Assembly (NCBI GenBank): GCA_030706015.1
Contig: JAUZPI010000003.1
Span: 7,004-71,003 of the forward strand
Direction of reading: 5' to 3'
Length of the DNA: 64,000 bases
Source: Bacillota bacterium
GTDB taxonomy: Bacteria > Bacillota > Clostridia > Clostridiales > Clostridiaceae
Position numbers and translations under genes: made by a program. This document shows positions 8,691 through 62,948 of this stretch, one piece after another; within the stretch, counting starts at the first letter, position 1; every line of letters starts with the position of its first letter. The notes beneath the pieces were generated by a model. It worked only from the letters and a program-made list of their open reading frames with translations, searched no databases and was not told the origin of the DNA.

Positions 8691-9740
8691 TTAAGCAATT
8701 TGATTTTCTTTGTAAACAATTTTATTACTTTTACCAATGAAATAATAGAAATATTCGTTAACTATATAGCAAGTAGGTAAAAATATTACAATTGAAATAG
8801 TTGTAATAATAATTCCCCAAATTAATGAGTTTCCATTAATTGTTGATTTGGGAACTTTAAATATAAAAACTAATATACCTTTTAATAGCGTAAATACTAC
8901 AGTTTGATGTAAACACATTAGTATTAAACTATTTTTACCAATATAAGATAGTAGTTTACTCTTTATACAATTAGATACTATAAAAATCATACCTATTCCT
9001 GATAAAGCTGATAAATAAAAGTAGAATATATTTCCATACTTGTTTACTGCCATATCAACTTTACTTATACTATTATTTAAATAACAACAAGTTATACTAA
9101 AAATTAATAAACTAATAAAAACAAATATACTTTTATAATTGGCCATTTTTATCAAAATAATATCTTTCTTGCTATATAATAAATTGCCTAATCCATAAAA
9201 TACTACTGCATTTAAAGCAATGTCAATTCCCCAAGGAAACTTAAACGTATTAAATATAGAGTTGAAATATCCAACTATAGCACTTAAAATTAATATTGAA
9301 TATAAAATATACTTGTTTTTTACTATATATAGCAATGTATAAAATATTATACTAACTATAAATAAACAAGGTAAAAACCAAAGCGCAGGATTATAAATCA
9401 AATCTCGACCATATAAAAAATCAATAAATATTTTTTCGATGCTTACACTTGCATAATTCCCAAACCTTCTACCTATTAATACCCAAAATAAAAGCGTGAC
9501 ACTTGAAAATGAAATATATGGTATAATTAATGAGTTAAATTTTCTTTTAAGGAATATTTTAAAGTTGTTATATTTTTTTATGTTAAATAAACAGCCTGAT
9601 AAAAAGAAAAATAATGGCATATGAAAAGAAAAAATATACTTGTCCAAATCTAGAGGAATTGCTGTATGTCCTAACAATACTAATATTATCCCAATACCCC
9701 TCATATTATCAATATTTTTCTTCCTTTGATTATTAAGCAC
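8691..9740 (-). CDS. Acyltransferase family 3 integral membrane protein (OafA/Oac-like O-acyltransferase)
   Basis: 349 aa with about 10 hydrophobic helices. N-terminal MRGIGIILVLLGHT motif and FFFLSG are typical of Acyl_transf_3. Confidence 0.8.
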   Translation of the reverse strand: MLNNQRKKNIDNMRGIGIILVLLGHTAIPLDLDKYIFSFHMPLFFFLSGCLFNIKKYNNFKIFLKRKFNSLIIPYISFSSVTLLFWVLIGRRFGNYASVSIEKIFIDFLYGRDLIYNPALWFLPCLFIVSIIFYTLLYIVKNKYILYSILILSAIVGYFNSIFNTFKFPWGIDIALNAVVFYGLGNLLYSKKDIILIKMANYKSIFVFISLLIFSITCCYLNNSISKVDMAVNKYGNIFYFYLSALSGIGMIFIVSNCIKSKLLSYIGKNSLILMCLHQTVVFTLLKGILVFIFKVPKSTINGNSLIWGIIITTISIVIFLPTCYIVNEYFYYFIGKSNKIVYKENQIA

Positions 9741-16575: not shown

Positions 16576-17136
16576 TTATGGCATTTGTAGTGGACCATTA
16601 CCTGTAAATTTGATAGTTATCTTTACAAGGTTCTTGGTTTGGGTATCTATATCGAACTCTTCAATAAAGGCCTTACCTTCATATTTCTCTGTAGACACAT
16701 CTTCATCTACATAAAGTTCAAGGTCAATTTCATCTCCGCTATCAATCGCATCCTGCAATACTTTTTGCCCATATGGATCATCTGTAATATTAAAAGAACC
16801 ATCTATTTGTCCGCTCCAAGACTTTGTTCCCACAACTGAACTATCCCAGCCACCATCCCCGAAGTGTGAAGCATCTATTAGGGATTGCTTAATATTTAGC
16901 TTCCACGAACTCAGCTTAGATATTGCAAAACCATCTGTTACATCAATAAAATTAGCCTGCTCTGCTACATCAAAGGCGGCTCCTGCAGCATGTGCTGTTA
17001 TACAGTAATAATACTTAGTCGGACTACCATTAGTTACAATATCGCCAACTTTGTAGTTAGTACCAGTTGCCCACGCAGCAGCACTTGTTAAATCTATTTT
17101 TCTTCTCACATTTCCGTTTCTACCTGTCTTTATCAT
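16576..17136 (-). CDS. Major tail protein
   Basis: 186 aa directly upstream of the chaperone pair. Beta-rich. Confidence 0.6.
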   Translation of the reverse strand: MIKTGRNGNVRRKIDLTSAAAWATGTNYKVGDIVTNGSPTKYYYCITAHAAGAAFDVAEQANFIDVTDGFAISKLSSWKLNIKQSLIDASHFGDGGWDSSVVGTKSWSGQIDGSFNITDDPYGQKVLQDAIDSGDEIDLELYVDEDVSTEKYEGKAFIEEFDIDTQTKNLVKITIKFTGNGPLQMP

Positions 17137-24466: not shown

Positions 24467-25750
24467 CTACATTCTTACGTTTACTGGTCCTATTGCATTC
24501 TTTATATTCGATACTTCATATCCATCCAAGCCATACCATATAGCACTAAAGGTATGAGGGTCAATGTTAAATTCATCCTCAATTATTTCTCCATCCTTAT
24601 TGGTAGCATAAGTTAATTCTTTAAGTTCCTCAATTGTATTTACACAATTCTCTGAGCATATAATTTTCTTAAACCTCTTAACTTTTTTAGTGTTTTGAAG
24701 TCTACTCCCAGGGAATTTCTTTGCACCCTTCATATTGAAACCTTGCTGCTTATAGTACTTAATTGTTTTAGGCTCTGCACTATCAGAGTAGATTAATTCC
24801 TGAGTATTTTTAAATTCTGCTATTTCCACAGCAGTTTTATCATCTGTCATTTGATTTTTATAGTACTCCCAATAAATATAGAGAATTTTCTCTTCATGAT
24901 CTACCACCATACGAACTATTGCATTATATGAAGTCTCAAAACCAAAATCCATTCCTACTCTCATGATAGAGTTTTTTATTTTCTGTATGGCTTCAAGAAC
25001 TTCGTGGTGTGGCCTAACTTCAAACTGTGGTAAAACTCTAACACCGTTAATACCAAATTGACCTTTTCGGGCTATTCTATAGAGGTCTACATCATAGGTT
25101 TTGAGTTCTTCCAGCTGCTCTATATAACTTTTAGGCAAAAATAAATTATCATCAGCAGTAGAGTGATGATAATAAGTGTTATTTTTAACTATTGTTCTAT
25201 TCTTGTAAAGTTCTTGATCATCAAGTATAAATACATTTTTCTTCATGTCATTAAAAAAGTGCTTAAAGGACCAATTGCTTTTGCTTACCGGGTTGGTTGA
25301 TAGCAACATATGCAAACTTAATGATGGATGCCTTAAACGTCCTAAAAGTTCTTTAAAACCTTCATATTTTACCTCGGAACATTCTTCAATCCATACAATT
25401 GATACATTGTTAATTGATTTAAGCTTAGCAGGCTTATCCATGCCCTTGAATATTATCTTAGAGCCATTAGGAAACTTAACTTGCATAGGTGATGATGTGA
25501 ATTTAATCCTATCATCCAATTCCATTTCAGTTACAATTTCTTCTAGGAGTGAAAAGCAGCTATCTCTTATAGTGTCATATACTTCCCTAACTACCAAGGC
25601 CGTTCTTTTTTCTGATAACAGTTTAAGAATAAGCTTTAAGGCTACATGGTAACTCTTAGATGAACCATAGCCGCCAACTAAGAAATAAAACTTGTATTCC
25701 CAATTAAAGAGGAAATCTTCAAAGTGAGGATTGACTTCTTTTTCAATCAT
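24467..25750 (-). CDS. Terminase large subunit (PBSX/Terminase_3 type)
   Basis: Walker A-like [16 protein letters not shown], followed by a nuclease half. Overlaps the TerS stop. Confidence 0.9.
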
Positions 25751-26475
25751 TTTTCCTCACCCTTTCGCTTTATGACTATCTCGATTGGTTTATCATCATC
25801 TGGATTCTTAGATACTTTTTCAATATCAACCTTAAGCTTTTCAATTCTAAGTTTCTGTTCCTCGGTTGCTAAATCCCAATTCTTGTGCAGAAGTTCATCA
25901 TAGTTCTTAATCATGCTTTGCAATGTTGCCATGGCTCTACTTTGAGCGTTAAGGAAGGTTGCTTGCCTATCCCATGCGAATTGAAATTCCCATTCTCTTT
26001 CCTCAGAAGAACTCTTGTCGCCCCATGAATCCTTTGTCTTTTTCAATTCCTTAATCATTTCACTCTTGGATTCAACAAGCATAATCCTTTGCGCCCTTAT
26101 GATTGCAGCATACTGGATTGTGATGTTTTCCCACAGAATATCTAGTGGGTGTTTTTGCTCAATCTCCTGTATAATCCCTAAGGTTTCCTCCGGAAGATAC
26201 TTAGAAAAAAAACCATGAGTCTCAGCGTTCTTATTCTTTGCCGGTGCTCCATGACCTTCTGCATTCTTATTATTCAAGGGTGCACCTTTTTTCTTTTTGG
26301 GTGCACCCTTCTCTTTTTTATCCTTGGACCAGTTATAACGCTTAATCCATGACTTTATTGTATTTACACTTACTTCATATTTTTCTGCTAATTCTTTATA
26401 CTTCATACCTTTTAAGTAATCTCGTTTTGCCTGTTCTTTTACATCAGGTGCCCTTGCTTCATTCATTACCACCAC
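25747..26475 (-). CDS. Terminase small subunit
   Basis: N-terminal [33 protein letters not shown] and a basic G/A/P-rich linker. Directly upstream of TerL. Confidence 0.75.
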
Positions 26476-26508
26476 CTCATTGCTAGTTGCTTTTGTTTGT
26501 TTTGGGTA

Positions 26509-26540
26509 TAAAAAAGAACTCTGTTAAGAGTTCTTTTTTA
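26509..26540 (-). terminator. Perfect 9-bp hairpin terminator between the minigene unit and terS (bidirectional by sequence)
   Basis: aagaactct gtta agagttctt flanked by an A-run and a T-run. Abuts the stop codon of 26538..26879. Confidence 0.6.
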
Positions 26541-26879
26541 CTGATTGCTATATTTTGGTATTATATTATCTATTTCTGCAATTTTATTCCTCAGCTTACT
26601 AATAGCTATTTTGTATTCATTCTTTTCATTCTCAATTTTGGAGGTTAAATCATTGTATTCTTCATGATATTTGTAGTATTCTTCGCTATATGATTCATCG
26701 CTATGCTTTAACGCTCCATATAACTCTCTCTTAGCCCAAGTTTCTCCTATCTTCTGCCTTTTCGCAACTATTTCTTCTGCCTTTTTAGCCAATTCTTGTA
26801 TACAATTTTCTTTAATATCTTTTAACGCTTTAACAATTTCTTTTGAGTAATTATTAGAAAACATTTGATTTGTATCCAT
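26538..26879 (-). CDS. Hypothetical helical protein
   Basis: AAGGTGG SD then ATG at 26879 (MDTNQMF...). The track start at 26906 lacks an SD. Confidence 0.55.
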   Translation of the reverse strand: MDTNQMFSNNYSKEIVKALKDIKENCIQELAKKAEEIVAKRQKIGETWAKRELYGALKHSDESYSEEYYKYHEEYNDLTSKIENEKNEYKIAISKLRNKIAEIDNIIPKYSNQ

Positions 26880-26991
26880 TCTTTCATTCCACCTTCTACC
26901 ACACATTTCTACATTTGAAAGAAGGTTTCCTTCTTTTGTCGAATAAAAAAGAGCCTATCTAATGTAAGCCCTTTAAAACCAATATACTATT

Positions 26992-27313
26992 TTATAACCA
27001 TATTGGAACCATATCTATCCCTCCAACTTACCATAAAACAGGGTGCATTTTAACACTTCCTTAATCTACTAGCCATATAGGTGCCATAATTTTCACTTCC
27101 TAACGATACCATAATGGAGTCATATTATTCACTCCCATCCCACAGGCATATCACCATCTCCTTTTATCCTAATAAAATAGGCATGTTGTCACACATCCTT
27201 ATAAAAGTATTACTGGCAACTTAAACACTCCTTATAAAACCAATATAGGCATCTCTACCACTCCTAATGATTGCAAATTATTCGAATAATACTAAACCCC
27301 ATAAAATCGGCAT
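26992..27313 (-). other. Tandem array of nine SD-led minigenes (6-11 codons each)
   Basis: Hand reverse-complement gives these units. 27278..27313 MPILWGLVLFE. 27232..27252 MPILVL. 27199..27219 (TTG start) MPVILL. 27164..27184 MPILLG. 27129..27149 MPVGWE. 27100..27123 MTPLWYR. 27061..27087 MAPIWLVD. 27028..27048 MHPVLW. 26992..27012 MVPIWL. Eight units have GGAG, GGAAG or GGAGG 7-8 nt upstream of the start; the fourth has a weaker AAGGAT about 10 nt upstream. Stops abut or overlap the next SD. Confidence 0.6.
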
Positions 27314-27396
27314 ACTATCCCTCCTTTTTCTGTATAATTCTACAGCAAACAGGAAATTCCTTCTTTTATGACAATTGTTTGTTAATTAGTTTTCAA

Positions 27397-27528
27397 TTAC
27401 TTCTTATTAGCATATATCTGCCTATTCGTTAGCCTTTTACGTGCTTTCTTAAATTCACATGCCTTTTGGTCTTTATCGCAAGATATACAGCACTTATGAC
27501 ATTTATAGGCTAAAGTATCATCTTTCAT
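27397..27528 (-). CDS. 43-aa Cys-rich small protein
   Basis: GAAGGAG SD. Peptide MKDDTLAYKCHKCCISCDKDQKACEFKKARKRLTNRQIYANKK. ATGA overlap with the upstream ORF. Confidence 0.4.
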   Translation of the reverse strand: MKDDTLAYKCHKCCISCDKDQKACEFKKARKRLTNRQIYANKK

Positions 27529-27686
27529 CTCCTTCTAATTGCTCCCCTATGTCTTTTATAGCTATCATGCTTCATAAGGTTTTCAAAATCTTCAAATGAG
27601 AGGTCTTTTTCTTTATCTCTCACCTTACTGTTAAGTTTGTTGTATTCATTCGGCTGCTGCTCTCTTAATATATCTCCTAGTTTCAT
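27525..27686 (-). CDS. 53-aa hypothetical protein
   Basis: GGTGAGAGG SD. Peptide MKLGDILREQQPNEYNKLNSKVRDKEKDLSFEDFENLMKHDSYKRHRGAIRRR. Confidence 0.4.
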   Translation of the reverse strand: MKLGDILREQQPNEYNKLNSKVRDKEKDLSFEDFENLMKHDSYKRHRGAIRRR

Positions 27687-27711: not shown

Positions 27712-27731
27712 AAAAAGGGCCCTTAGGCCCT
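27712..27731 (-). terminator. Terminator of the ChW-repeat gene
   Basis: Minus strand: agggcc taag ggccct followed by ttttt. Confidence 0.6.
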
Positions 27732-27748: not shown

Positions 27749-29191
27749 CTATTTTTTACTTGCATTAATAATTACTGCTTCCATTCTTAAGCTTTGTCCA
27801 GTTGTTCCGGCTGTTTGTCCAGTATAAACTAGATTTTGCCATCCAATATCTTGTACATGGGCTTGATAAGATAAATTATAGTCACTTCTCACAACCCCGT
27901 TGTTATCTACAATTTTTATTTCTAACGCTTCCATTCTTAAGCTTTGTCCTGTTGTTCCTGCTACTTCACCATCTTTAACCCATGGAAGCCAGCCTAAATT
28001 AGCAACATGTGCTCTATACATTATATGTAAATTATGATCATTATTATATGGTGCCTTAAATCTAATTCTTATAGCTTCCATTCTTAAACTTTGACCAGTC
28101 GTTCCTGCTACATTACCACTATCTACCCAATTTTGCCAACCGATGTTTTGAACATGTGCTTGATATTCTATAGCTGGTCCACTAAATGGAACATTTGTAA
28201 CAACTACTGTTGAATTATATACATGTAAGTATAATATTAGCTCTTGAATAGTACCATCTATACCTATAGATTGTATCTTTAAAATATGATCTCCAACAGT
28301 ATAGTTATTTGCACTTAATGTAACATTATATCCTCCGTTATTTGTTGCAGTATACGCTGGATAATTTGCGGCAACATCTGCTCTTGCTATGCCAAACTGT
28401 GTGTTATAAAACGCACCACCATCGATTGAGTATTTTACAGAACTGATTCCAGATTGATTTAACGCTATACCAGTTACCGGTACTGTATTAGTGAATATAG
28501 TATTTAATACCGACGAATCAACAGTTAGTACTGGGTTTAATTTAGGTATATCATTTTGTGAAATCAATTTTCCATCTGTATCAATTGCATCTAATTCATA
28601 TAAATAATCGTCACCACTTGTCGGATTAACATGATTAATTTGGATATTATGCAAACCATTTGTATTGAATGTGTATTCGAATGAGATAGCCTCTATTTTT
28701 GTATTGAAAGCGTTACCTGGAAGTATTGTTGCTATCGTATTTAAAACAACTCCATCACCAACTATCTGTTCATTACAACCAGCTAGGCTAGGGTAACTAG
28801 AATGTATTGGTTGAATTATTCTAATTTTTTTACCGTAAATGAAAAATTGTGTACTATTTCCGGTATAAGATCGAGTATATGTACCCTTGTACTCAGTAGT
28901 TGTATCACCGTTTACTAATTTATCATATTGCCCTGAATAATTGATGTTAGTATTAGAGAAATCATATCTGTTCCAACCTATTTCAGGCTCTTTGATTGTA
29001 TCACCTACTTGAGCACTATTGGCTGATGTATTATTTAAATTGTGCGTTCCTACCAGTACATCATCATAGTGTACATCTGGATTCACTGTGTCTGCTTTTA
29101 CTAAATCAGTTTTTCCAAAACCAATAAAAAACGACATAAGAGCAATGACAAATGCCATTACTAAACTAAACTTTTTTCTCATTCTTTTCAC
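27749..29191 (-). CDS. Secreted ChW-repeat (clostridial hydrophobic W repeat) surface protein
   Basis: Signal peptide MKRMRKKFSLVMAFVIALMSFFIGFG. Three C-terminal repeats YQAHVQNIGWQNWV..AGTTGQSLRMEAI.I. Confidence 0.8.
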   Translation of the reverse strand: MKRMRKKFSLVMAFVIALMSFFIGFGKTDLVKADTVNPDVHYDDVLVGTHNLNNTSANSAQVGDTIKEPEIGWNRYDFSNTNINYSGQYDKLVNGDTTTEYKGTYTRSYTGNSTQFFIYGKKIRIIQPIHSSYPSLAGCNEQIVGDGVVLNTIATILPGNAFNTKIEAISFEYTFNTNGLHNIQINHVNPTSGDDYLYELDAIDTDGKLISQNDIPKLNPVLTVDSSVLNTIFTNTVPVTGIALNQSGISSVKYSIDGGAFYNTQFGIARADVAANYPAYTATNNGGYNVTLSANNYTVGDHILKIQSIGIDGTIQELILYLHVYNSTVVVTNVPFSGPAIEYQAHVQNIGWQNWVDSGNVAGTTGQSLRMEAIRIRFKAPYNNDHNLHIMYRAHVANLGWLPWVKDGEVAGTTGQSLRMEALEIKIVDNNGVVRSDYNLSYQAHVQDIGWQNLVYTGQTAGTTGQSLRMEAVIINASKK

Positions 29192-29899: not shown

Positions 29900-30430
29900 T
29901 CATCCTTTAATATCCAAGCACTTACATACTAAATTTACTATCTCTTTTTTCTTATTTCTTATAGTAGGCTCTGTTGAATTCAATTCCATAGCTAGGGTAT
30001 AATTTGAAATTTTTCTTATGTTGCCATATTTCATCTTAACCAGCATTTGAGAATATTCATCTAACAGCTTAATAGTACATTCGATATCTGTTATTTCTCT
30101 TTTGGATTCTCTTATCCTGTACTCCAGCTTGGCCTTTTTCTTCCTAAGGAATATTGCTTCAAGTTCTAGGTTCTCTATCTGCCTTATTAGTTCTTTTTCT
30201 GCATAACTTGTCCCATCACTAGAGCTTTGTACCCTTTCCTCATATGTTATTGACCTGCTTTCTTCCTCCAAGGATACATTATTATGCTTAATATCATCCT
30301 CAATACACTTTATTTGTTCCTCTAAGATTTTAACTTTATGCTCCATCTTATCTATATCTCTTAGCTGTCTATAGTATCTATACAGCCTACCTTCTGTTTT
30401 TCTGAATTGTTCATCACTTATTGGTATCAT
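29900..30430 (-). CDS. ArpU/RinA-like late transcriptional activator (sigma-70 region-4-like HTH)
   Basis: Start at MIPISDEQF (the track start at 30523 overlaps the upstream gene). TEGRLYRYYRQLRDID at the N-terminus and a C-terminal HTH ISNYTLAMELNSTEPTIRNKKKEIVNLV. Last gene before the late region. Confidence 0.5.
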   Translation of the reverse strand: MIPISDEQFRKTEGRLYRYYRQLRDIDKMEHKVKILEEQIKCIEDDIKHNNVSLEEESRSITYEERVQSSSDGTSYAEKELIRQIENLELEAIFLRKKKAKLEYRIRESKREITDIECTIKLLDEYSQMLVKMKYGNIRKISNYTLAMELNSTEPTIRNKKKEIVNLVCKCLDIKG

Positions 30431-30465
30431 TAGCAACACCCCTTTGCAATATATTATTCCACTTA

Positions 30466-31293
30466 TTAACCAGTTATCAAATTCATGGCTTTTCCTCTGT
30501 TTTCTTTCCTGGTTCCAGCCCATGATTTTCCTTCCTCTGACAATTCGATATTCTTCAGATATTCTCCAATAGCTTTTATTGTTGCAACATCGTTAAGTAA
30601 TCCAGAAGCTCCACCAAGTATATTCTTTATCTCGTATAGACTAGGTAACTCTAATCTATCATTGTCAGTGGTTATTTCATCGGGTACTTCAAACCCAAAC
30701 TCCTTAAATATCTCCCAAAGATTTTCGCACCATCTTTCTATTTGTGATTCTATTGTCTTGTCCAATCTCCTTGATATCTCCCATCCTATGTTTTTAGCTT
30801 TATGACTTAATTTAACGTTAGAATCTGCAATGATTCTATCCCTTAAATCCCTTTGCAACTTAGTTTCTTCATATCCTCTGTATAATAGACTTAGTATGAA
30901 ATCCACATCCATTTTAGAAGGATTTATACTTAATTTAGGTGATTTTATAACTCTCCATCCATTATCGTTTCTAGTAATTAAACCAACTTCCTTTGGTACT
31001 TCTTCTTTCTTAATTACTCCCTTAGGGCAAGCTATATACATCCTATTGCAGCAATCTAAATATTTTTGAAATTTCTTATCAGCTAACCAAACTCCCCTGG
31101 TTAATTTAACTTCATATAGCCTTATATCCTTTGTTGAGTACCTATGAGGTGTCATTGCTATAACATCTGCTCGAGAACCATGCATATTAGGTATTTGAAT
31201 TTCTGTAAAGGTTAGTAGTCCACTTTCTCTTAGGAAACAAGCCAAGTCCTCTTGGAGTTCTCTTTCATTTTTAAATTCATTAGTTTTTTTCAT
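30466..31293 (-). CDS. PD-(D/E)xK nuclease-fold protein (MmcB-like) candidate
   Basis: HGSRADVIAM...RLYEVKLTRGVW...YIACPKG pattern (D...E-x-K). Confidence 0.4.
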   Translation of the reverse strand: MKKTNEFKNERELQEDLACFLRESGLLTFTEIQIPNMHGSRADVIAMTPHRYSTKDIRLYEVKLTRGVWLADKKFQKYLDCCNRMYIACPKGVIKKEEVPKEVGLITRNDNGWRVIKSPKLSINPSKMDVDFILSLLYRGYEETKLQRDLRDRIIADSNVKLSHKAKNIGWEISRRLDKTIESQIERWCENLWEIFKEFGFEVPDEITTDNDRLELPSLYEIKNILGGASGLLNDVATIKAIGEYLKNIELSEEGKSWAGTRKENRGKAMNLITG

Positions 31294-51183: not shown

Positions 51184-51211
51184 GAGGCCCTTTGTGGGCT
51201 TTTTTTAATGT

Positions 51212-51697
51212 CTAATTTGTGACATAACCAGATCCTACACACATCGATATTATATGTGTTCCTCCTTCCTTATCAATATATCTAAAACTAAAGGCATCGC
51301 TTGTCATTCCAAATCTATCAATCTGAATAGATTTATCAATTCTTGCAATGTTAATTTGAGTTAATTTAAAACCCTTTGGAACCTGGAGAATGCCTCTTTT
51401 TCTTGAAGTTATACCACCAGTATTATATTCATGAGCGTAGAAGGAAATGGAATTATTGCTTATATCCACAAGTATATGACCGCCTTGTTCCTTTTCTCTG
51501 CAGAACATTTTTGAATTGTTAATAAATACAAGAAATGAATTATTGAACTTGGTTGTTTCAATATTGTTTTTCATCTTATTGTAAGCCTTGGATCCAAATA
51601 CACCAATGCTGCACAGCATAGATATTATTACAATAGCTGCTGTTAGCTCTACTAGGGTGTATCCCTTGCTAACTCTATTTAACTTCATAATTGCCAC
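51212..51697 (-). CDS. Prepilin-type N-terminal cleavage/methylation domain protein (minor pseudopilin)
   Basis: KGYTLVELTAAIVIISML class III signal. Confidence 0.8.
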   Translation of the reverse strand: MAIMKLNRVSKGYTLVELTAAIVIISMLCSIGVFGSKAYNKMKNNIETTKFNNSFLVFINNSKMFCREKEQGGHILVDISNNSISFYAHEYNTGGITSRKRGILQVPKGFKLTQINIARIDKSIQIDRFGMTSDAFSFRYIDKEGGTHIISMCVGSGYVTN

Positions 51698-52043
51698 TTA
51701 GGGGCCAAACCGTTACAACATAATTAATTCCGCTGCTCTTAAAGCCTATATCAACTTTATTATATGCATCCATAGCACTTGGAACTGTTAAATTTTCTAT
51801 ATTTCCATTTGTCATATCTTTAATAGAATTTATAATACTACTGGAATCATATTTCTCTTCATCTAAATAATCATTATAGACAGCCAAGGAAATTTGACGG
51901 GCTAATTGTTCAACTTTTGCTTGTTTTGTCCTATTTATATATCCCGCTGCACAAGGTACTAGTACACTAGTCAATATTCCCATTATAGAAATTACTAAAA
52001 TCAGCTCTACTAGAGTAAAACCTTTTTTTATTTTTTCATTCAT
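51675..52043 (-). CDS. Type IV pilin / pseudopilin
   Basis: KKGFTLVELILVISIMGIL class III signal. Confidence 0.8.
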   Translation of the reverse strand: MNEKIKKGFTLVELILVISIMGILTSVLVPCAAGYINRTKQAKVEQLARQISLAVYNDYLDEEKYDSSSIINSIKDMTNGNIENLTVPSAMDAYNKVDIGFKSSGINYVVTVWPLSGNYEVK

Positions 52044-52081
52044 GCCATTTACTCCTTTATAAAAAACTTTTATATAAATAA

Positions 52082-53722
52082 TTACTCGCTAATATACACC
52101 CTATTCATTACCTCTTTATAGGTTGTGATTCCCTGCCTAACTAGGTTATATCCTCCTTCTTTTAAACTTATCATTCCTTGCTGCAGACTATATTGTCTTA
52201 ATTTATTCATACCTTCCCCATTAACTATAAACTCTCTATGTTTTTTATTTAAATACATTATTTCAAAAAGAGCTCTTCTGCCTAAATATCCAGTTTGATT
52301 ACATTTACAGCAACCCTTACCATGAAATAATACGTGTTGTGTTAAATTCAATTTTTCAATCTCTTCATTTGAAGGTTTATATTCTGCTTTACAATGTGGA
52401 CAAATAATCCGAACAAGCCTTTGAGCTACTACTGCAGTTAGTGCATCTGCAACTAGATATTGGGGTACTCCCATGTCCATTAATCTCAAAACTGAACTTA
52501 TTGAATCATTGGTATGCATAGTTGTCAAAACAAGATGTCCTGTTATTGCCGCTCTTACTGCAATTTTAGCAGTTTCATCATCACGCACTTCTCCCACCAT
52601 AATAACATCAGGATCTTGTCTTAAAATACTCTTTAGACCCAAACTGAACGTTAAACCAGCTTTATTATTTACCTCCATTTGATTTATACCATACATTGAA
52701 TATTCTACTGGATCTTCTATGGTAACAATATTTCTTTCCTTACTGTTAAGATAGTTAATCATTGAATACAAGGTAGAGGATTTTCCTGATCCGGTTGGAC
52801 CAGTTATGATAATTGTTCCTTGTGAGTTCATTTTTAATATTTCTATTAACTGAGGATTATCTAAATGATATTCTATTGTATTATATAAAATTCTTAACAC
52901 AAGTTTTTCGCCATGAATTGTTGGCACCGATGACACCCTTAAATCATATTTATAAGAAGAGTAGATGTAACTTATTTTTCCATCCTGAGGTATTCTATTT
53001 ATTGCAATATTTATCTTCGCCATAACCTTTATTCTTGTGCAGAGAGTTTGGTGAACTTGTTTTGGTATACTGGTTAATTCGTGTAAAATACCATTTATTC
53101 TTATTCTAATAAGTACATTTTCACTAAATGGTTCAATGTGAATGTCGCTCGCTTTTTCATTAATTGCCTGACTTAGAATATAGTCAACTAATCTAACTGC
53201 TGGCGCTTCTTCAATAGTTACGTCTTGGATATTATTCTCAAAGCTTTTACTAGATAATATTGAACCTGTTAGTTCCTTCAGTACATTTTCACATTCATTT
53301 TTTCCATAAAGTAAATTAATATAATAATCAATTTGACTTTTTAAACCTTTAAATGGAATTACTTGTTTTTTTGTTAAAAAGCTTATTTCCTCTACATTAT
53401 CCGAATTGATAGGATTATGAAATGCAGCGAATATTTTATCACCCACTAATTTAAATGGTAAAACGCTATATTTTATAGCTTGTTCTTTAGATATCCCATC
53501 AATTGCTTTCTGTTGTATGTCAACCTCATCTAAATCAATATACTGTATAGAAAACTTCTCTTTTAATATTCTTAAGATAATTTTTTCATCTATAAAATTA
53601 TTAGAAAACACCACCTCTTCAAAAGTGTCACTTTTTTCTTTCATAAAGCTGTGAACCAATTTATTTTTTTCATCATCCATATGACCTTCCTTGATAAGCA
53701 TTTTTTCAAGTTTGCTGTGCAT
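52082..53722 (-). CDS. pilB: GspE/PilB-family type IV pilus assembly ATPase
   Basis: Walker A GPTGSGKSS and tetracysteine CPHC...CCKC. Confidence 0.85.
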   Translation of the reverse strand: MHSKLEKMLIKEGHMDDEKNKLVHSFMKEKSDTFEEVVFSNNFIDEKIILRILKEKFSIQYIDLDEVDIQQKAIDGISKEQAIKYSVLPFKLVGDKIFAAFHNPINSDNVEEISFLTKKQVIPFKGLKSQIDYYINLLYGKNECENVLKELTGSILSSKSFENNIQDVTIEEAPAVRLVDYILSQAINEKASDIHIEPFSENVLIRIRINGILHELTSIPKQVHQTLCTRIKVMAKINIAINRIPQDGKISYIYSSYKYDLRVSSVPTIHGEKLVLRILYNTIEYHLDNPQLIEILKMNSQGTIIITGPTGSGKSSTLYSMINYLNSKERNIVTIEDPVEYSMYGINQMEVNNKAGLTFSLGLKSILRQDPDVIMVGEVRDDETAKIAVRAAITGHLVLTTMHTNDSISSVLRLMDMGVPQYLVADALTAVVAQRLVRIICPHCKAEYKPSNEEIEKLNLTQHVLFHGKGCCKCNQTGYLGRRALFEIMYLNKKHREFIVNGEGMNKLRQYSLQQGMISLKEGGYNLVRQGITTYKEVMNRVYISE

Positions 53723-53880
53723 TTTTCCTCCTAATGAAAATAATTATAAATACTGTAATGAAAATTATTTCCACATTTTAACTTTATATTCAGGTGTTTT
53801 TGAAGTTTTTGAATTTATTGTTTGGTAATATATAAAACTTAACTGCATATACATGTAAAAAAAGCATCGAGGTGATGAAT

Positions 53881-54000
53881 ATGCTAATAATTAATTTAGG
53901 AAGATTTCTATTTTCATCTTTAGCAATTGCAATACCACTTTATTTAGTTGGGTATGTAATATACGAAGTAAGACATTTAATTAAGCATTTTAGATTATAG
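53881..54000 (+). CDS. 39-aa membrane mini-protein candidate
   Basis: GAGGTGA SD. Peptide MLIINLGRFLFSSLAIAIPLYLVGYVIYEVRHLIKHFRL. Confidence 0.3.
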   Translation: MLIINLGRFLFSSLAIAIPLYLVGYVIYEVRHLIKHFRL

Positions 54001-54066
54001 GCTATATCTAAGCTTACATATTCTAATATAAAAATAAGACATATAATCCTCTCAAGATTATATGCC

Positions 54067-55152
54067 TTATTTAGCACCACTATATAAACGGTAATTTCCG
54101 CTTTGGTTAGATATTAAATTTACTGATTTATTTGTATAATCATATTGAAATACATCATTGTCACTGGATGCTTGTGCGTAACCTACAAAATATACTTTTC
54201 CTTCTTGATCTAAAATCAAGTCAGTATTCTCGTCAATACTTTGAGGAAAATCATAAACCAAACGATTAACGTTTCTCTTGGTTAAATTTACACTATATAA
54301 TGAGTTATTTTCTTCATTACTTTCTTTAGCAATAACATATACATTACCAATATTAGTATCAATAGCTACAGAAAATATCTTCTCAAAGTTTGAGCTTACA
54401 TCAATTCTCATGTTATTAGAAAAATTATAGTAAAACAAACTGTACTGTCCCATATTATTTTCTAATGCAATAAATTCATTACTATTAAGAGGAAAGAAAT
54501 TTGTACAGTAACCATTGAATTTATCAAAAATTATTGTTCTTGTATTAGTTGCAAAGTCATATTTATAAATTGCTCCATACCCCTGCTCACCCTTCTTTAC
54601 TCCATAGTATAACAAATTGCTGTCATCCAGCCATTTATATAAATCGCCGGATATGAGCACCTCTTTATCAAAATTATACCTTTTACCATTTATATCATAT
54701 ATTCTCACGTCATCGGCAGAACTTATAGAGTCCTCTGTATAAGTTCTAAAGGCTAACTTGCTGCCTTTACTTGATAATCTTAGATTTTTTGCACTATAGA
54801 AATCTTTTATAACAAGACTTTTATCCCCAGAGGAAATATTTATTATGGCTTGAGGTAATTCTGTACCTCTTTTGATACCAACTAGGGATATATATGTTTC
54901 TTTATCCTTAAGGTATTGAAGCTCCAATATGTTAGCTGTATTCCCTAAAAAATTAAGCTTTCCCTTTTCAATATTATAGATACTTTCAGTACTTTTTTTG
55001 ATATTTATACCGACTTGTTCACCTAATTTAGGTAACTTTACAAAATAATTATCATTCTGTGGCTTTGAGGGTTCATTTTTTTTATTACAGCCAACTGAAG
55101 CTAAGCAAGAAAATAACATCATTACAATTATTATTTTCCTATTAATTTTCAT
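54067..55152 (-). CDS. Lipoprotein, beta-propeller-like
   Basis: MKINRKIIIVMMLFSCLASVGC lipobox. Repetitive beta-strand pattern. Confidence 0.65.
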   Translation of the reverse strand: MKINRKIIIVMMLFSCLASVGCNKKNEPSKPQNDNYFVKLPKLGEQVGINIKKSTESIYNIEKGKLNFLGNTANILELQYLKDKETYISLVGIKRGTELPQAIINISSGDKSLVIKDFYSAKNLRLSSKGSKLAFRTYTEDSISSADDVRIYDINGKRYNFDKEVLISGDLYKWLDDSNLLYYGVKKGEQGYGAIYKYDFATNTRTIIFDKFNGYCTNFFPLNSNEFIALENNMGQYSLFYYNFSNNMRIDVSSNFEKIFSVAIDTNIGNVYVIAKESNEENNSLYSVNLTKRNVNRLVYDFPQSIDENTDLILDQEGKVYFVGYAQASSDNDVFQYDYTNKSVNLISNQSGNYRLYSGAK

Positions 55153-55976
55153 ACTAACTCTGTTTCTCCTGTAAAGGTTGTTACTGCTGGACCAGTCATC
55201 ATAACCCCTTCTTCACAAATATTTATTTTTAATTCTCCTCCTGGAACCTGAACAGACACATTTGTATCAGTTAATCCAAGCTTATTGCAAGCTACTACAC
55301 TGGCACAGCATCCAGTACCGCAAGCCAAAGTTGCACCCGCTCCTCTTTCCCAAGTTTTAACCTTTATTCTTTTTCTATCGATCACTTCACAAAAGTTAAC
55401 ATTTGTTCCCTGTGGAAATAATTGTTTACTATTCTCAATATATTTACCTTCTTCCACATCAAACTTATTGAGTTCACCCATTATAATTGTATGTGGTACT
55501 CCAAGTAACATTGTATTTAATTTGTAATTTTTATTATTAGCCTGGAAATCCATATTAACAATCTCTTCATCCACTAACGCAGGAATAGAAGCTGGCTCAA
55601 AAGAAGGCTCACCCATATTTATTGTTATTTCAGTTGCAACTCCATTAATATGTGTTACTTCCGCTAGTTTAATTCCATCGCCAGTTTCTACATTTATCTT
55701 ATCACTGTTTATAAGCTTATTATCAAATACATATTTCACAAAGCATCTTAAACCATTACCACACATAGAAGCGTAAGAACCATCTGAATTAATTATTACC
55801 ATTTGTATATCTGCAGTGTGACTCTTTCTTACAAGTAATATACCATCTCCACCTACACCAAAATGTCTGTCACATAGAGTTACCGCTAAATCTTTTTCTT
55901 TTCCAACAAAATTATTTTCTAAATCTTCAATTACAATAAAGTCATTTCCTGTTCCATGCATTTTTGTTATTTTCAT
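55149..55976 (-). CDS. dapF: Diaminopimelate epimerase
   Basis: MHGTGNDFIVIED..., two catalytic Cys contexts (SMCGNG, LACGTG). Confidence 0.9.
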   Translation of the reverse strand: MKITKMHGTGNDFIVIEDLENNFVGKEKDLAVTLCDRHFGVGGDGILLVRKSHTADIQMVIINSDGSYASMCGNGLRCFVKYVFDNKLINSDKINVETGDGIKLAEVTHINGVATEITINMGEPSFEPASIPALVDEEIVNMDFQANNKNYKLNTMLLGVPHTIIMGELNKFDVEEGKYIENSKQLFPQGTNVNFCEVIDRKRIKVKTWERGAGATLACGTGCCASVVACNKLGLTDTNVSVQVPGGELKINICEEGVMMTGPAVTTFTGETELV

Positions 55977-56233
55977 TTTTCTGCTCCTTCCAATATCCAG
56001 AATAAGATTAATTCTTCTTATTTCTAATGCTGCATTACATCTATTTCATAAAAGTATGTATAAATACATAATCGGTAAGTTAAGCTTTATTTTAATATTA
56101 TTAAATGTTATACTATTTGTTAAGTATGCTATAGATGTATTTTTATTCTATTATTAATAATAATAAATTTTATGTGCATTGTATACTGTTTTAAATAATA
56201 ATTTCTTGTTAATTTATAAAAGGAAAGGAATGA

Positions 56234-57967
56234 TTGATTTTGGCACTGGACGGTATATTCTTACACAGTTTAGTTGATGAAATAAGTGATGTTTTAGTTG
56301 GAGGAAGGGTATCAAAAGTCAATCAACCTGAAAAGGATGAAATAATACTTTTAGTAAGAGGCAGCAATAACGTAAATTATAAATTATTAATCAGCGCAAG
56401 TTCCTCTTACCCTAAAATACATTTTACAAAGGAATCAAAAGCAAATCCATTAAAAGCTCCTATGTTTTGCATGGTGCTAAGAAAATATTTAAATAATTCT
56501 AGAATAATTAATATCCATCAGCTTCAAACAGATAGAATTGTAATGATTGATTTCGAAAGTGTTGATGAATTAGGATTTAACAGCATTTACACCTTAATTG
56601 TTGAAATTATGGGTAGACATAGTAACATAACTCTTGTAAGACAAAGAGATGATATTATTATGGATAGTATCAAACATATCACTCCTGATATAAATAGATA
56701 CAGAAGTTTAATGCCTAATATTAAATTTGTATATCCTCCAAGTTCTGAGAGGCTGGAACCTTTTAACTTTATTGAAAATGATTTTATTTCATTTATAAAA
56801 AACAATACTATAGAGCTGAATGAAAAAGCCTTTTCAAAGATATTTGTAGGAGTGAGTGCTAATTTATCAAAGGAACTCTTTTGGAGACTAAACAATTATA
56901 ATCTCATTGCCGATAAATTAAATTTTACTGAAATCTATAATAAGATTAAATCGATCTTCGATGATATTAAAAACAATAATTATTATTTTGCTTCTTACAC
57001 AAAGAATAATAATTTAATTGATTTTTATTGTATTAAATTAAGCTATTTAACAGATTCAGAAGAAAAAGTTTACACCTCACCTTCTATCCTATTAGAAGAC
57101 TTTTACTATGAAAAGGATAAACTTGACAGACTGAATAATCGTAGTAATGATTTGCAGAAAATTATCAGCATTAATTTAGATAGATGTAATAAAAAGATTC
57201 AAATTCTAGAGGATAAACTTAAAGAATGTGCTGATAAAGAGTATCTAAAAATTTGCGGAGAATTATTAACTGCTAATATATACAGTGTAAAAAAAGGTGA
57301 TACAGAAATCAGCGTATATAATTACTACAGTGAAAATGGTGACAATATGACTATTCCACTAAATGAACATAAGACTCCTTCTGAAAACATTCAATCCTAT
57401 TTTAAAAAGTATAATAAACTAAAGAAATCTGAAGAAATGGCAACAATCCAATTAGATTCAACTAAGGATGAAATTGAATATCTGCAATCCGTATTAACAA
57501 ATATACAAAATGCAGATAAGTATGAAGAAATTGAAGAGATAAAGAAGGAACTTATAGATACAGGGTATATTAAATATGGGAAGAGTTCAAAAAAAGGCAA
57601 AAAGGATAAGCCTACTAAGCCTTTACATTTTAAGTCTTCTGATGATATTGATATATATGTTGGAAAGAATAATTTACAGAATGATTTCTTAACATTAAAA
57701 TTTGCGGATAAAAGAGATATTTGGATGCACACAAAAAATATTCCTGGTTCTCATGTTATTGTGAAAAACATGAATGGCAAAATTCCAGACTCCACTCTGT
57801 TAGAAGCCGCAGCACTGGCTGCTTTTTATAGTAAGGCTAAGAATTCCTCCAATGTACCTGTGGATTATACTGAGGTTAAAAATGTAAAAAAACCTTCTGG
57901 CGCTAAACCTGGCATGGTTATTTACACGACAAATAAGACTATTTTAACTGAACCTAAAACACTATAA
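56234..57967 (+). CDS. rqcH: NFACT-family ribosome quality control protein (FbpA/RqcH)
   Basis: (M)ALDGIFLHSL N-terminus, coiled coil, C-terminal DIWMHTKNIPGSHVIVK. The true start may be the TTG at 56240. Confidence 0.8.
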   Translation: MILALDGIFLHSLVDEISDVLVGGRVSKVNQPEKDEIILLVRGSNNVNYKLLISASSSYPKIHFTKESKANPLKAPMFCMVLRKYLNNSRIINIHQLQTDRIVMIDFESVDELGFNSIYTLIVEIMGRHSNITLVRQRDDIIMDSIKHITPDINRYRSLMPNIKFVYPPSSERLEPFNFIENDFISFIKNNTIELNEKAFSKIFVGVSANLSKELFWRLNNYNLIADKLNFTEIYNKIKSIFDDIKNNNYYFASYTKNNNLIDFYCIKLSYLTDSEEKVYTSPSILLEDFYYEKDKLDRLNNRSNDLQKIISINLDRCNKKIQILEDKLKECADKEYLKICGELLTANIYSVKKGDTEISVYNYYSENGDNMTIPLNEHKTPSENIQSYFKKYNKLKKSEEMATIQLDSTKDEIEYLQSVLTNIQNADKYEEIEEIKKELIDTGYIKYGKSSKKGKKDKPTKPLHFKSSDDIDIYVGKNNLQNDFLTLKFADKRDIWMHTKNIPGSHVIVKNMNGKIPDSTLLEAAALAAFYSKAKNSSNVPVDYTEVKNVKKPSGAKPGMVIYTTNKTILTEPKTL

Positions 57968-57985
57968 ATTTCTAGATTCATATAT

Positions 57986-58025
57986 AAAAAAATAGTTAGG
58001 ATAATGATAATCCTAACTATTTTTT
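57986..58025. terminator. Bidirectional terminator between convergent rqcH and pyrP
   Basis: 10-bp perfect stem atagttagga/tcctaactat flanked by an A-run and a T-run. Confidence 0.7.
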
Positions 58026-58039
58026 ATATATTATTTTCT

Positions 58040-59356
58040 TTATTTTTCTTCAGTTCTACTATTTTCAGGCAGTATTAGATTTAAAATCACACCTACTAAG
58101 GTAGCTAATGCAACTCCTGAAACTTCTAATTCAGAACCATGCACAGGAAATTTAATTGAAGCCCCGCCAATTCCAAGTACTATGATTACTGAAGCAATAA
58201 TAAGATTTCTTTTCTTACCAAAATCAATCTTATCTTCAACAAAAACTCTAAAACCAGATGATGCTATTATACCAAATAACAATATGCTTACTCCGCCTAT
58301 AACTGGCAGCGGCATATTAGCAATTACTACTGAAACTGGACCTATGAAAGATAATAGTATTGCTATTACTGCAGCCCAACCTATAACCCAAACGCTATAA
58401 ACCTTAGTTATTGCCATAACTCCTATGTTTTCTCCGTAAGTTGTATTTGGAGGTCCTCCTAAAAGTCCTGCAGTGATAGTCGCAACTCCGTCTCCTAATA
58501 TAGATCTGTGCAGTCCAGGTTCTCTTGTGAAGTCTTTTCCTACTACATTGTTAGTAACATAAACGTGTCCTATATGCTCTGCAATTGTTACAAAAGAAAC
58601 AGGTGCCATTAATATAATCACATCCCAGCTAAATCTCGGAAGTGAACTGCTAAATGCAAAGTGAGGCAGCTGTAATATCGGTGTTGTAGCTATTTGGTGT
58701 AAAACTTCATTTGGTATTACACCTAGTGCTAGTGCTGTACAATATCCTGCTATCATTGAAATAAGTATTGGAACTACTCCTAGGAAGCCTTTAAAGAACA
58801 TGCTTCCAATTATGCCCACTGCCAAAGTTACCATTGCAACTGTAATCCAAGCCCATCTTGGAACACTTGCTGATATTGATGCAGTTGGACTAAGTCCTGC
58901 CCAGTTAACAGCTACACTAGCAAGTCCTAAACCAATTACTATAACAACTGAACCAACTACAACTGGTGATAAAGCCCTGCTTAACCATGCCGAACCAAAA
59001 ACTGCTATAATACCTGCAACTATAATATATACCACACCTGCAGAAATAACACCTGCTGCAATGGCTCCTGTAGTGGCAGCTCCTGTTGGGTCAACAGCAT
59101 TATATTTAGCTGCAACAGCTAATATTGGTCCAATGAATGCAAAAGATGATCCTATATATGCTGGTAGTTTAGCCTTGGTACATAGTATGTACAGTAATGT
59201 ACCTATACCACTGCATAATAGAGCTATTGATGGATTCATCTTAGTTAGGATCGGTACAAGTATAGTTGCACCAACCATAGCAAACAAATGCTGAAAACTT
59301 AATGGGATTGTTTTAGGTATAGGTAATTTCTCTTCTACATCGACGAAATTCTTCAT
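58040..59356 (-). CDS. pyrP: Uracil permease (NCS2 family)
   Basis: 438 aa, polytopic. Directly downstream of pyrR, as in the Bacillus pyr operon. Confidence 0.8.
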   Translation of the reverse strand: MKNFVDVEEKLPIPKTIPLSFQHLFAMVGATILVPILTKMNPSIALLCSGIGTLLYILCTKAKLPAYIGSSFAFIGPILAVAAKYNAVDPTGAATTGAIAAGVISAGVVYIIVAGIIAVFGSAWLSRALSPVVVGSVVIVIGLGLASVAVNWAGLSPTASISASVPRWAWITVAMVTLAVGIIGSMFFKGFLGVVPILISMIAGYCTALALGVIPNEVLHQIATTPILQLPHFAFSSSLPRFSWDVIILMAPVSFVTIAEHIGHVYVTNNVVGKDFTREPGLHRSILGDGVATITAGLLGGPPNTTYGENIGVMAITKVYSVWVIGWAAVIAILLSFIGPVSVVIANMPLPVIGGVSILLFGIIASSGFRVFVEDKIDFGKKRNLIIASVIIVLGIGGASIKFPVHGSELEVSGVALATLVGVILNLILPENSRTEEK

Positions 59357-59395
59357 TTATTACTTCCCCTTCAACTTCATTTAATGTTAAATCTA

Positions 59396-59947
<552 letters not shown>

Positions 59948-59963
59948 CTAGCTTAAACTACTT

Positions 59964-60060
59964 AAATAAAAAGCGCCATAACCATAAGGTCAAGGCGCAC
60001 TAATGCTATAAGTTTCTAGCTATGTTAATATCGCCTTATGACCTCACGGGATCACTTAAA
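59964..60060 (-). promoter_or_regulatory. pyr attenuator: PyrR-binding loop plus terminator
   Basis: The minus strand has gaucccgugaggucau, resembling the PyrR box, upstream of a gcgcc...ggcgc hairpin with a U-run. Confidence 0.6.
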
Positions 60061-60107
60061 GGTCCTTCATCTAAATTTATTAAACAAATTTTATCACATA
60101 GCGTAAA

Positions 60108-61025
60108 CTATTTCAATTCATTCCTTAAAATATTTAATACTTTTTCAAAATAATTTGGTGTAGGTACTTGGAATTCTATATATTTTCCCAAAGTTGGGTG
60201 GATAAAACCAAGTTTTTTTGCATGCAGCAACTGTCCCTCAGCAGAAAATCTCTGTTTCTTAAATCCATACACGGCATCTCCCACTAATGGATGACCAATA
60301 TGAGCCATATGAACTCTAATTTGATGAGTTCTTCCTGTTTCCAATTTGCACTCAACTAAGGTACTGTTTTTAAAACGTTCTAGAACGGTATAATGAGTTA
60401 CAGCATTTCTACCATCCTTAATTACAGCCATTTTAATTCTATCCTTTGGATGTCTACCTAAGGGAGCATCTACGGTACCGTCATCTTCTTTAATAATACC
60501 TTCTACTATTGCCAGATACACTCTTGTCATAGAATGCTCTTTTAACTGCTCAGCTAATTTATTATGTGAAAAATCATTCTTTGCTACAACTAATACTCCT
60601 GAGGTATCCTTATCTATTCTATGTACAATACCCGGCCTTGTAACACCATTTATACCCGATAAGTCCTTACAATGATAAAGCAAGGCATTTACAAGAGTAC
60701 CAGTATAATTTCCTGGAGCCGGATGTACTACCATGCCTTGTGGTTTATTAACAACTATGACATCGCTATCCTCATATAATATGTCTATAGGAATATTTTC
60801 TGGTTCCACATCTAAATCAACAGCCTCCGGTATATCAACTACTATTTCATCGCCAAACTTTAATTTGTAATTACTCTTCTTTACTTTATTATTTACTAAT
60901 ACTCCTTCATTTTGGATGATGTTTTGTATATATGATCTAGATTTATCTTGAAAATATTCTGATATAAATAAATCTAATCTATAATTAACTTTATCTTCTT
61001 CAACAACAAATTTAAAACTAGACAT
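60108..61025 (-). CDS. rluD: RluA-family 23S rRNA pseudouridine synthase
   Basis: S4 domain N-terminus and HRIDKDTSGVLVVAK motif. Confidence 0.85.
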   Translation of the reverse strand: MSSFKFVVEEDKVNYRLDLFISEYFQDKSRSYIQNIIQNEGVLVNNKVKKSNYKLKFGDEIVVDIPEAVDLDVEPENIPIDILYEDSDVIVVNKPQGMVVHPAPGNYTGTLVNALLYHCKDLSGINGVTRPGIVHRIDKDTSGVLVVAKNDFSHNKLAEQLKEHSMTRVYLAIVEGIIKEDDGTVDAPLGRHPKDRIKMAVIKDGRNAVTHYTVLERFKNSTLVECKLETGRTHQIRVHMAHIGHPLVGDAVYGFKKQRFSAEGQLLHAKKLGFIHPTLGKYIEFQVPTPNYFEKVLNILRNELK

Positions 61026-61478: not shown

Positions 61479-61511
61479 CCCGCCTTAAAAGCTATTAAAT
61501 TATCGATGTTT

Positions 61512-62111: not shown

Positions 62112-62208
62112 ACCAACATCTCCCTCTAAAATTTAATTAGTATGCTTTTATTTTTCCAATAGAGAAAGAAATTATTACTTTAATAAATTAATTTCTATTA
62201 TTACTTTA

Positions 62209-62901: not shown

Positions 62902-62914
62902 AATATTTCCTCCT

Positions 62915-62943
62915 TAAAAAATCTCACTCATTAGAGTGAGATT
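62915..62943 (-). terminator. Terminator after divIVA
   Basis: atctcactc atta gagtgagat with a U-run on the minus strand. Confidence 0.6.
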
Positions 62944-62948
62944 TTAAA

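Follow-up and report, generated by a model that had tools for sequence, protein, structure and literature searches.

Several described systems approach the locus analysed here, a chain of nine minigenes on the minus strand (27325..26992) of a 64-kb stretch of a Clostridiaceae genome. The whole stretch, to which all coordinates refer, is called the window below, and it holds a temperate siphovirus-type prophage with a serine recombinase, an XRE/ImmA module, RecT, a terminase, an SPP1-type portal and a GH25 lysin; features are on the minus strand unless stated otherwise. Phage lambda bar and artificial toxic minigenes are, like the array, phage-borne and composed of a Shine-Dalgarno sequence (SD), a start codon, a very short open reading frame (ORF) and a stop codon, from which rapid termination or release of peptidyl-tRNA is expected. 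The bar minigenes, however, are single two-codon ORFs with a tRNA/stop-context effect, whereas the array comprises nine units of 6–11 codons that keep an amino-acid pattern and not the codons, set in a promoter-terminator cassette. The bar-type layout of SD, start, few-codon ORF and stop is present in the array; a bar-type tie to one tRNA or to the last sense codon, independent of the peptide, was not found, and the analogy with lambda bar drawn in a preliminary description of this DNA does not carry over, since the units differ in last sense codon and isoacceptor and agree in amino-acid class. We know of no established natural role even for bar.

A likeness at the level of the peptides is to the RRNPP signals (Qsr/Qsp) and to Phr and AimP, which are also very short, mostly hydrophobic and built around Pro and Trp, share the clostridial lineage and come in several paralogous variants. 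Clostridial Qsp-type signalling peptides control sporulation and solvent formation, and the eight of C. acetobutylicum invariably have Pro at position −5 and Trp at −1, most of them being highly hydrophobic; the active QspB heptapeptide is AEPTWGW (PMC7376267). Read from the sequence of pSOL1, the QspG precursor ends in ...SPMTPW and that of QspH in ...GLPLWVW; these three share a P-[aliphatic]-W core with MTPLWYR, MAPIWLVD and MVPIWL in the array, where MPILWG may also be compared. The QspG and QspH ORFs, 39 aa each (9389..9508 (-) in locus L301 and 8777..8896 (-) in locus L302), lie downstream of two HTH-TPR regulators and are missing from the plasmid gene table distributed with PLSDB, which is incomplete. 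Sigma-H control is a further parallel: the phr signalling-peptide genes of B. subtilis are reportedly under sigma-H control (McQuade et al. 2001), and the array has a SigH-type promoter. Known RRNPP signals differ, however, in being cut from secreted precursors of 35–50 residues encoded beside a TPR receptor gene, whereas the array units have no signal sequence; neither an exported precursor of 35–50 residues nor an adjacent HTH/TPR receptor was found at the locus.

The staphylococcal PSM-alpha operon likewise strings together several similar, tiny, hydrophobic formyl-Met peptides, head to tail and with their own SDs on one short transcript, but those peptides are amphipathic helices of 20–25 residues with a dedicated exporter, whereas the array peptides are too short for a helix and no transporter lies nearby. 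Regulatory mini-ORFs and leaders (erm/cat, the six-codon LEE4 mini-ORF, the two-codon axe-txe minigene) share with the array tiny ORFs, strong SDs and AU-rich, unstructured RNA; there, a single ORF governs or stabilises a downstream gene, whereas here a terminator and a new promoter come after nine ORFs, and therefore nothing is under the array's control. With no alternative structures, no controlled gene and a last unit that does not overlap the terminator, the leader-peptide analogy proposed earlier finds no footing. In genomic setting the array is closest to the prophage morons: it has its own promoter and terminator, lies between phage modules in a slot of variable content and has a predicted expression from a host sigma factor, all as in morons, and differs from them in that its cargo is a set of minigenes and not a protein-coding gene.

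The minigene array and its conserved pattern

A listing of short ORFs between 27600 and 26700 confirmed nine consecutive units of SD, start codon, 5–10 sense codons and stop (27313..26992). The first, U1 (27278..27325), has the SD AAGGAGGG and an ATG at 27313 and encodes MPILWGLVLFE up to a TAA stop, with an SD duplex energy of −14.3 kcal/mol. It is followed by U2 (27232..27266; SD TAGGAG, ATG 27252, MPILVL, TAA; −9.4 kcal/mol), the stop of which overlaps the U3 SD in TAAGGAG, then by U3 itself (27199..27233; SD AAGGAG, TTG 27219, MPVILL, TAA; −8.5 kcal/mol), U4 (27164..27200; SD AAGGAT, ATG 27184, MPILLG, TAA; −9.2 kcal/mol) and U5 (27129..27165; SD AAAGGAG, ATG 27149, MPVGWE, TGA; −11.8 kcal/mol), which contains the SD of the next unit. 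The remaining four are U6 (27100..27137; SD GGGAG, ATG 27123, MTPLWYR, TAG; −11.8 kcal/mol), U7 (27061..27102; SD TAGGAAG, ATG 27087, MAPIWLVD, TAA; −10.6 kcal/mol), U8 (27028..27063; SD AAGGAAG, ATG 27048, MHPVLW, TAA; −8.8 kcal/mol) and U9 (26992..27027; SD TGGAGGGA, ATG 27012, MVPIWL, TAA; −11.4 kcal/mol). From start to start the units are spaced at 61, 33, 35, 35, 26, 36, 39 and 36 nt, and the gaps from each stop to the following start are 25, 12, 14, 14, 5, 12, 12 and 15 nt. A decayed tenth unit, U10 (26965..26990), overlaps the terminator stem and is a copy of U1, 73% identical to 27318..27293 (ATAGTATGCCGATTTTATGGGGTTTA vs ATAGTATATTGGTTTTAAAGGGCTTA), in which the SD, the ATG, the CC of the Pro codon and the TGG of the Trp codon are all missing. 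The preliminary description had placed the nine units and their starts at the same minus-strand coordinates and given identical start spacings; it was also correct on the overlaps of stops with SDs (TAAGGAG, TAAGGAAG, TAGGAAG), on the U6 SD within U5 and on the degenerate tenth unit.

Such a chain is longer than chance would give. A script that links consecutive SD-led ORFs of 3–14 codons found a chain of nine here, against a maximum of five in 2,401,152 bases of phage, genome and metagenome loci (both strands); in 2000 shuffles of the cassette the longest chain was six and the mean 1.3. The units are also equipped as ordinary genes are. SD strength, taken as the duplex energy of the upstream region with the 16S rRNA 3′ end, ranged from −8.5 to −14.3 kcal/mol over the nine units (mean −10.6), the same range as real prophage genes (median −11.1 kcal/mol), while all ATGs on the strand average −3.3 kcal/mol and 12% of them reach −7 or below; SD-to-start spacing is normal. 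We found no RNA structure in the array beyond chance (z = +0.21 against shuffles), no Rfam match at the gathering threshold or at E ≤ 10, and a search for tRNA genes returned none. The arrangement is real and statistically exceptional, and it is apparently undescribed. Phrase searches of the literature for tandem bacterial minigene arrays matched only immunology papers on the 'tandem minigene'.

At the DNA level the units have diverged widely, with a mean pairwise identity of 0.48, because of which Tandem Repeats Finder reported no repeat at the array. It is an old, strongly diverged repeat, and neither a recent duplication nor an assembly artefact. Across the units, little or nothing has changed in the GGA/GGAG core, the start codon, the CC that begins a Pro codon and the early stop. 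This CC is kept in all nine units with G, T or A as third base, and so is the middle T of the following codon, which reads ATT, ATA, GTA, GTG, GTT or TTA and thus specifies Ile, Val or Leu. Codons vary within amino-acid classes that are kept (Ile ATT/ATA, Leu TTA/TTG/CTT, Val GTA/GTG/GTT), and the ORFs end on differing sense codons (GAA, TTA three times, GGA, GAG, CGT, GAT and TGG). Distances inside the ORFs, 3 or 6 nt from ATG to CC, 6 or 9 nt from CC to TGG and 3, 9 or 12 nt from TGG to the SD-abutting stop, are all multiples of three. The spacers show no such regularity, and four of the eight gaps between ORFs do not fit a multiple of three. The resulting peptides are strongly biased: 41 of the 53 non-Met residues (77%) are L, P, V, I or W, with Trp alone at 11%. 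Pro stands at position 2 or 3 in every unit, the second residue is P, T, A or V in eight of nine, and Trp occurs in six, in the pattern P-x-W or P-x-x-W, at the C-terminus in U8 only. U10, which has no start codon, is also the copy that has neither SD, Pro codon nor Trp codon.

Only features relevant to translation thus survive at ~48% identity, which fits selection on translated peptides and not on a DNA repeat or a structured RNA. Translation with selection at the peptide level is likely on this pattern, and the earlier claim that it is the translated product that is conserved holds, the SD, start, CC, middle T and stop having outlasted the divergence. Genes of 6–11 codons escape annotation, and a product under selection is known for almost none of them; should the nine units prove to be translated and kept by selection, few known functional coding units would be smaller, and their chain would be the first natural multi-copy minigene operon.

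Promoter, terminator and accessory slot

Directly upstream of the array lies a SigH-type promoter (27337..27363) with the −35 element GAAGGAATT (27363..27355), an 11-nt spacer and the −10 element GTAGAAT (27343..27337). In this form, GAAGGAATT-N11-GTAGAAT, it agrees with the SigH consensus (−35 AGGA(A/T)(A/T)(A/T) and −10 (R)NNGAAT, 11–12 nt apart), and it is nearly identical in form to two experimentally supported C. difficile SigH promoters, those of CD1543.1 (TATAAAGGAAAAACCTCTTTTAATGTAGAAAC) and cwp27 (CATAAAGGAAAATATTCTTTTATGTAGAATT) (PMC7438776). We scored both strands of the window with a position weight matrix made from 30 C. difficile SigH promoters (Table 3 of PMC7438776), whereupon the array promoter ranked first of ~128,000 positions at 20.7 bits, above the training median of 18.4. 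The next sites were one at 2012 (19.1 bits), the promoter of a 113-aa ORF just downstream of the array (18.9 bits) and one at 4608 (16.0 bits). The promoter of the 113-aa ORF (26906..26933, GAAGGAAAC-N12-GTAGAAA) lies outside the array and would drive a cassette of its own; a 30-nt element, AAAAGAAGGAA-N12/13-TGTAGAA, has just two copies in the window, directly before the array and before this ORF. We also considered that TGTAGAA might be a late promoter under the phrog_36 regulator of the phage, and dropped the idea because the evidence for a SigH match is much stronger.

Transcription is predicted to start at ~27329..27327, giving a leader of ~15 nt with the U1 SD, and a terminator-like hairpin with a T-run (26940..26974; 10 pairs, −9.2 kcal/mol, z = −1.83) closes the array transcript. 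Beyond the 113-aa ORF (26538..26879), which encodes an orphan coiled-coil protein as neighbouring cargo, a strong terminator hairpin (26508..26541; −20.7 kcal/mol, z = −4.3) forms the boundary to terS (25747..26475; phrog_509, 1.5e-95), the terminase small subunit gene and first gene of the packaging region. The strong hairpin that the preliminary description had seen between these two cassettes and terS is thereby borne out. Its placing of the array in the leader of the late/packaging region is not: the array has its own promoter and terminator, a second promoter precedes the 113-aa ORF, and relatives hold protein cargo in the slot. With its own signals in a slot of variable content, the array is therefore cargo of a moron-type cassette and not the leader of the packaging operon.

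The same promoter element (consensus aaaAGAAGGAAAACCTCCTAAAATGTAGAA) occurs upstream of terS in many Clostridium prophages, with an SD ~20 nt downstream of it, and the slot cargo in these relatives includes TIR-like, Abi-like, DUF2971, small membrane and zinc-ribbon proteins, among others. In the three loci where the downstream sequence was inspected (L008, L096 and L098), a terminator and then a conserved terS leader come after the cargo, and in L004 two such cassettes stand in tandem, as in this window. This suggests that a conserved SigH-type promoter marks a hypervariable accessory slot whose prophage cargo may be expressed at a time set by stationary phase or sporulation, and the promoter could be used to mine Clostridium prophages for accessory and defence genes. 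The loci with the slot promoter are L001, L002, L004 (two copies), L008, L088, L090, L094–L098, L118, L206–L230 and L299/L300.

The minigene-array layout itself was found nowhere else in the collections searched. It is absent from 164 loci with TerS relatives (best 71–83% identical), namely 80 GTDB genome loci, 80 IMG/VR loci and four Logan contigs around the closest TerS relatives (80–83% identity), from 25 IMG/VR loci with the same promoter, all of which hold protein cargo, and from the C. tetani phages that share the 53-aa gene upstream of the array. BLAST in distant mode against phages and plasmids gave no match to the array itself, a search for the 122-aa ORF in IMG/VR returned no loci, and exact-protein look-ups of window proteins yielded no record. 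Scans with a degenerate peptide/SD grammar, two in IMG/VR (42 matches and 1 match) and one in JGI metagenomes (65 matches), gave isolated chance matches at ordinary gene junctions. No known Clostridium protein exceeds 65% identity to the host RqcH; this Clostridiaceae lineage is therefore poorly sampled, and the lack of homologues says little either way.

The peptides as proposed product, and other readings

We give a probability of about 45% to the reading that the array is a self-contained, moron-type accessory cassette of a temperate Clostridiaceae phage which is translated and whose product is the tiny peptides. From the sequence we infer that transcription depends on SigH, that the units are translated and that the peptides are stable and have a target. 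Host RNA polymerase, directed by SigH, the sigma factor of the transition phase, would start at the 27363..27337 promoter when cells of the lysogen leave exponential growth or begin sporulation, and would make an unstructured RNA of ~390 nt that ends at the intrinsic terminator 26974..26940; read-through from two small upstream genes might contribute. Ribosomes would initiate at each minigene, or re-initiate down the chain across the gaps of 5–25 nt. In the class of peptide that appears to be kept, fMet/Met and an optional small residue precede Pro, which is followed by one or two aliphatics and then by Trp or an aliphatic, 6–11 residues in all; since this class is kept and the DNA or RNA sequence is not, the peptides themselves, in nine variants and at high dose, are the proposed product. 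By established enzymology, applied here, a small second residue would permit removal of Met and an N-terminal Pro or X-Pro would slow aminopeptidases.

As to function, we favour intracellular small ligands that would resemble the hydrophobic Pro...Trp peptides of the RRNPP (Qsp) type, although likeness to RRNPP pheromones is speculative ground. More specifically, the cassette could be a device that makes leaderless, mature-size mimics of the host's own Pro...Trp Qsp-type peptides in the cytoplasm under SigH, a proposal we consider doubtful; the several such receptors of solventogenic clostridia would account for nine variants, and the prophage would then steer sporulation or dormancy. In a variant of the mimic proposal, peptides freed at lysis would be imported by neighbours and act as a precursor-free, arbitrium-like signal. 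Together with the resemblance to Pro...Trp pheromones, the SigH control predicted here points to a way in which a prophage could act directly on sporulation or quorum sensing, with no receptor or export step. The large 'XRE' protein of phiCT9441A, which we looked at as a possible RRNPP receptor, proved to be an HTH with an ImmA peptidase and not a TPR protein.

A number of observations weigh against the peptides as product or against their likeness to pheromones. The array is a single occurrence, with no homologous array in the collections searched; the argument from reading frame rests on perhaps five independent indel events, all internal to one sequence; and the array terminator is only moderate, 9 of 200 shuffles folding as well (z = −1.83). 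The Qsp register of Pro at −5 and a terminal Trp is not kept: the spacing from Pro to Trp is one or two residues shorter, Trp is C-terminal in a single unit and three units have none. The units have no export signal, and no RRNPP/TPR receptor gene was found among the scanned ORFs of the window. Free peptides of six residues are, moreover, normally short-lived in the cytoplasm.

If translation itself were the function and the peptides irrelevant, the minigenes would release peptidyl-tRNA, load Pth, tie up tRNAs and ribosomes and slow translation, at entry into stationary phase or as a brake resembling abortive infection. Nine strong SDs on unstructured RNA would serve this well, and the slot often carries defence-like cargo. 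The range of 3–8 codons in which minigenes inhibit translation and accumulate peptidyl-tRNA overlaps the 6–11 codons seen here, but inhibition drops with minigene length and the array units are at the long end (PMC2490762). A pure sink, besides, needs no conserved peptide, whereas in the array amino-acid classes are kept while codons, isoacceptors and last sense codons vary, and we think this explanation improbable.

A non-functional or transient by-product is an improbable origin too. The ribosome-binding site and first codons of a gene for a small hydrophobic membrane protein would have been duplicated in tandem, with the copies now drifting; U1 (MPILWGLVLFE) does resemble the beginning of a transmembrane segment, small membrane proteins are encoded in neighbouring slots of relatives, a decayed tenth unit exists, and the array is unique to one metagenome-assembled genome (MAG). 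Neutral drift, however, should by now make most units look like U10, whereas at ~48% identity nine of nine keep SD, start, in-frame Pro, aliphatic residue and early stop, and a high-scoring promoter and the terminator are kept intact.

That the RNA is the product appears quite unlikely. As a sponge rich in GGA and SD motifs it might titrate CsrA, another RNA-binding protein or the 30S subunit, or it might act as a stabiliser of the STAB-SD or LEE4 mini-ORF type. About a dozen GGA motifs do lie within ~330 nt, the first SD would be a few nt from the predicted 5′ end, and one described six-codon mini-ORF stabilises an mRNA through occupancy of its SD (PMC8708949). On the other side, the array has no Rfam match, even at E ≤ 10, and does not fold beyond chance, so the GGAs are not displayed in hairpin loops, which speaks against the CsrA sponge suggested earlier. 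A sponge would also leave the conserved ATG, the in-frame CCN-NTN-TGG and the stops unexplained, and there is no downstream gene to stabilise before the terminator.

Peptides acting in cis on the ribosome that translates them, like the E-peptide pentapeptides of macrolide resistance or the cat/cmlA leaders, would gain from nine copies a larger share of treated ribosomes, and a multicopy chain suits a cis-acting product. The E-peptide consensus is M-(bulky/hydrophobic)-(L/I)-(hydrophobic)-V, which the short hydrophobic units fit in part: in U1–U4 the third residue is Ile or Val and the fourth is hydrophobic. The fit ends there: most units have at least six codons and none has five, Val is at position 5 in one of nine and Pro at position 2 in five of nine, no resistance gene or drug-related context accompanies the array, and a SigH promoter has no obvious link to antibiotics. 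The macrolide pentapeptide analogy of the preliminary description thus fails, and we regard action of this sort as very unlikely.

A role of the repeats as DNA sites (for TerS at pac, a phage transcription regulator, or a partition or replication protein) with incidental ORFs is highly improbable, even with the array ~500 bp upstream of terS and a recurring CC-(A/T)n-GG core, since no such repeats precede terS at the 164 loci with TerS relatives (which also disfavours the TerS pac repeats named beforehand as a refuting outcome), the spacing is irregular (26–61 bp), the CC...GG core changes length by whole codons and shows no excess elsewhere in the window (8 occurrences, 6.5 expected), and the conserved positions coincide exactly with translation signals. 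An 'ATGG-N8-ATGG' DNA half-site was dropped, the first site reading ATGC, ATGA or TTGC in most units.

Neighbouring genes and further promoter sites

Upstream of the array, the phage regulator phrog_36 (29900..30523) is followed by a gene for a secreted protein of 480 aa with three ChW (clostridial hydrophobic W) repeats and an Ig-like domain (27749..29191), which sits between the regulator and the packaging region, has its own terminator (27716..27731) and is probably a lysogenic-conversion (moron) gene. Next come a 53-aa phrog_3928 gene (27525..27686) and an unlisted, Cys-rich ORF of 43 aa (27397..27528; MKDDTLAYKCHKCCISCDKDQKACEFKKARKRLTNRQIYANKK), the start of which overlaps the stop of the 53-aa gene (ATGA); the ORF has no Pfam match and may encode a zinc-ribbon-like small protein. 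On the far side of the array, a collection of 5.8 billion proteins gave only one match to the 113-aa protein, namely itself, in an NCBI MAG named 'Bacillota bacterium'.

Directly before terS, the strong terminator hairpin is joined to a conserved leader, CCAAAACAAACAA..AGCAAyTAGCAATGAGGTGGTG (26541..26470). Although their flanking genes are different, C. difficile and C. tetani phages (phiCD119 53020..53067; phiCT9441A 16867..16915) share it at 88–90% identity, and it is also present in L008, L096 and L098; it may serve as a late promoter, an antitermination site or a packaging signal.

In the host flank (51200..64000) we noted DivIVA, RluD-like, PyrR-like, uracil permease, RqcH, DapF and type IV pilus ATPase genes. 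The SigH-type sites at 2012 and 4608 precede accessory genes beyond the lysis module, which encode a 72-aa XRE HTH protein and a 265-aa protein followed by one of 359 aa, both of the latter without a Pfam match. Finally, an antisense SigH-like match on the plus strand at 26920 (AAGAAGGTTTCCTTCTTTTGTCGAAT, 13.5 bits) overlaps an inverted repeat of the second promoter and points into the array; with a spacing 3–4 nt shorter than usual, it is probably non-functional.

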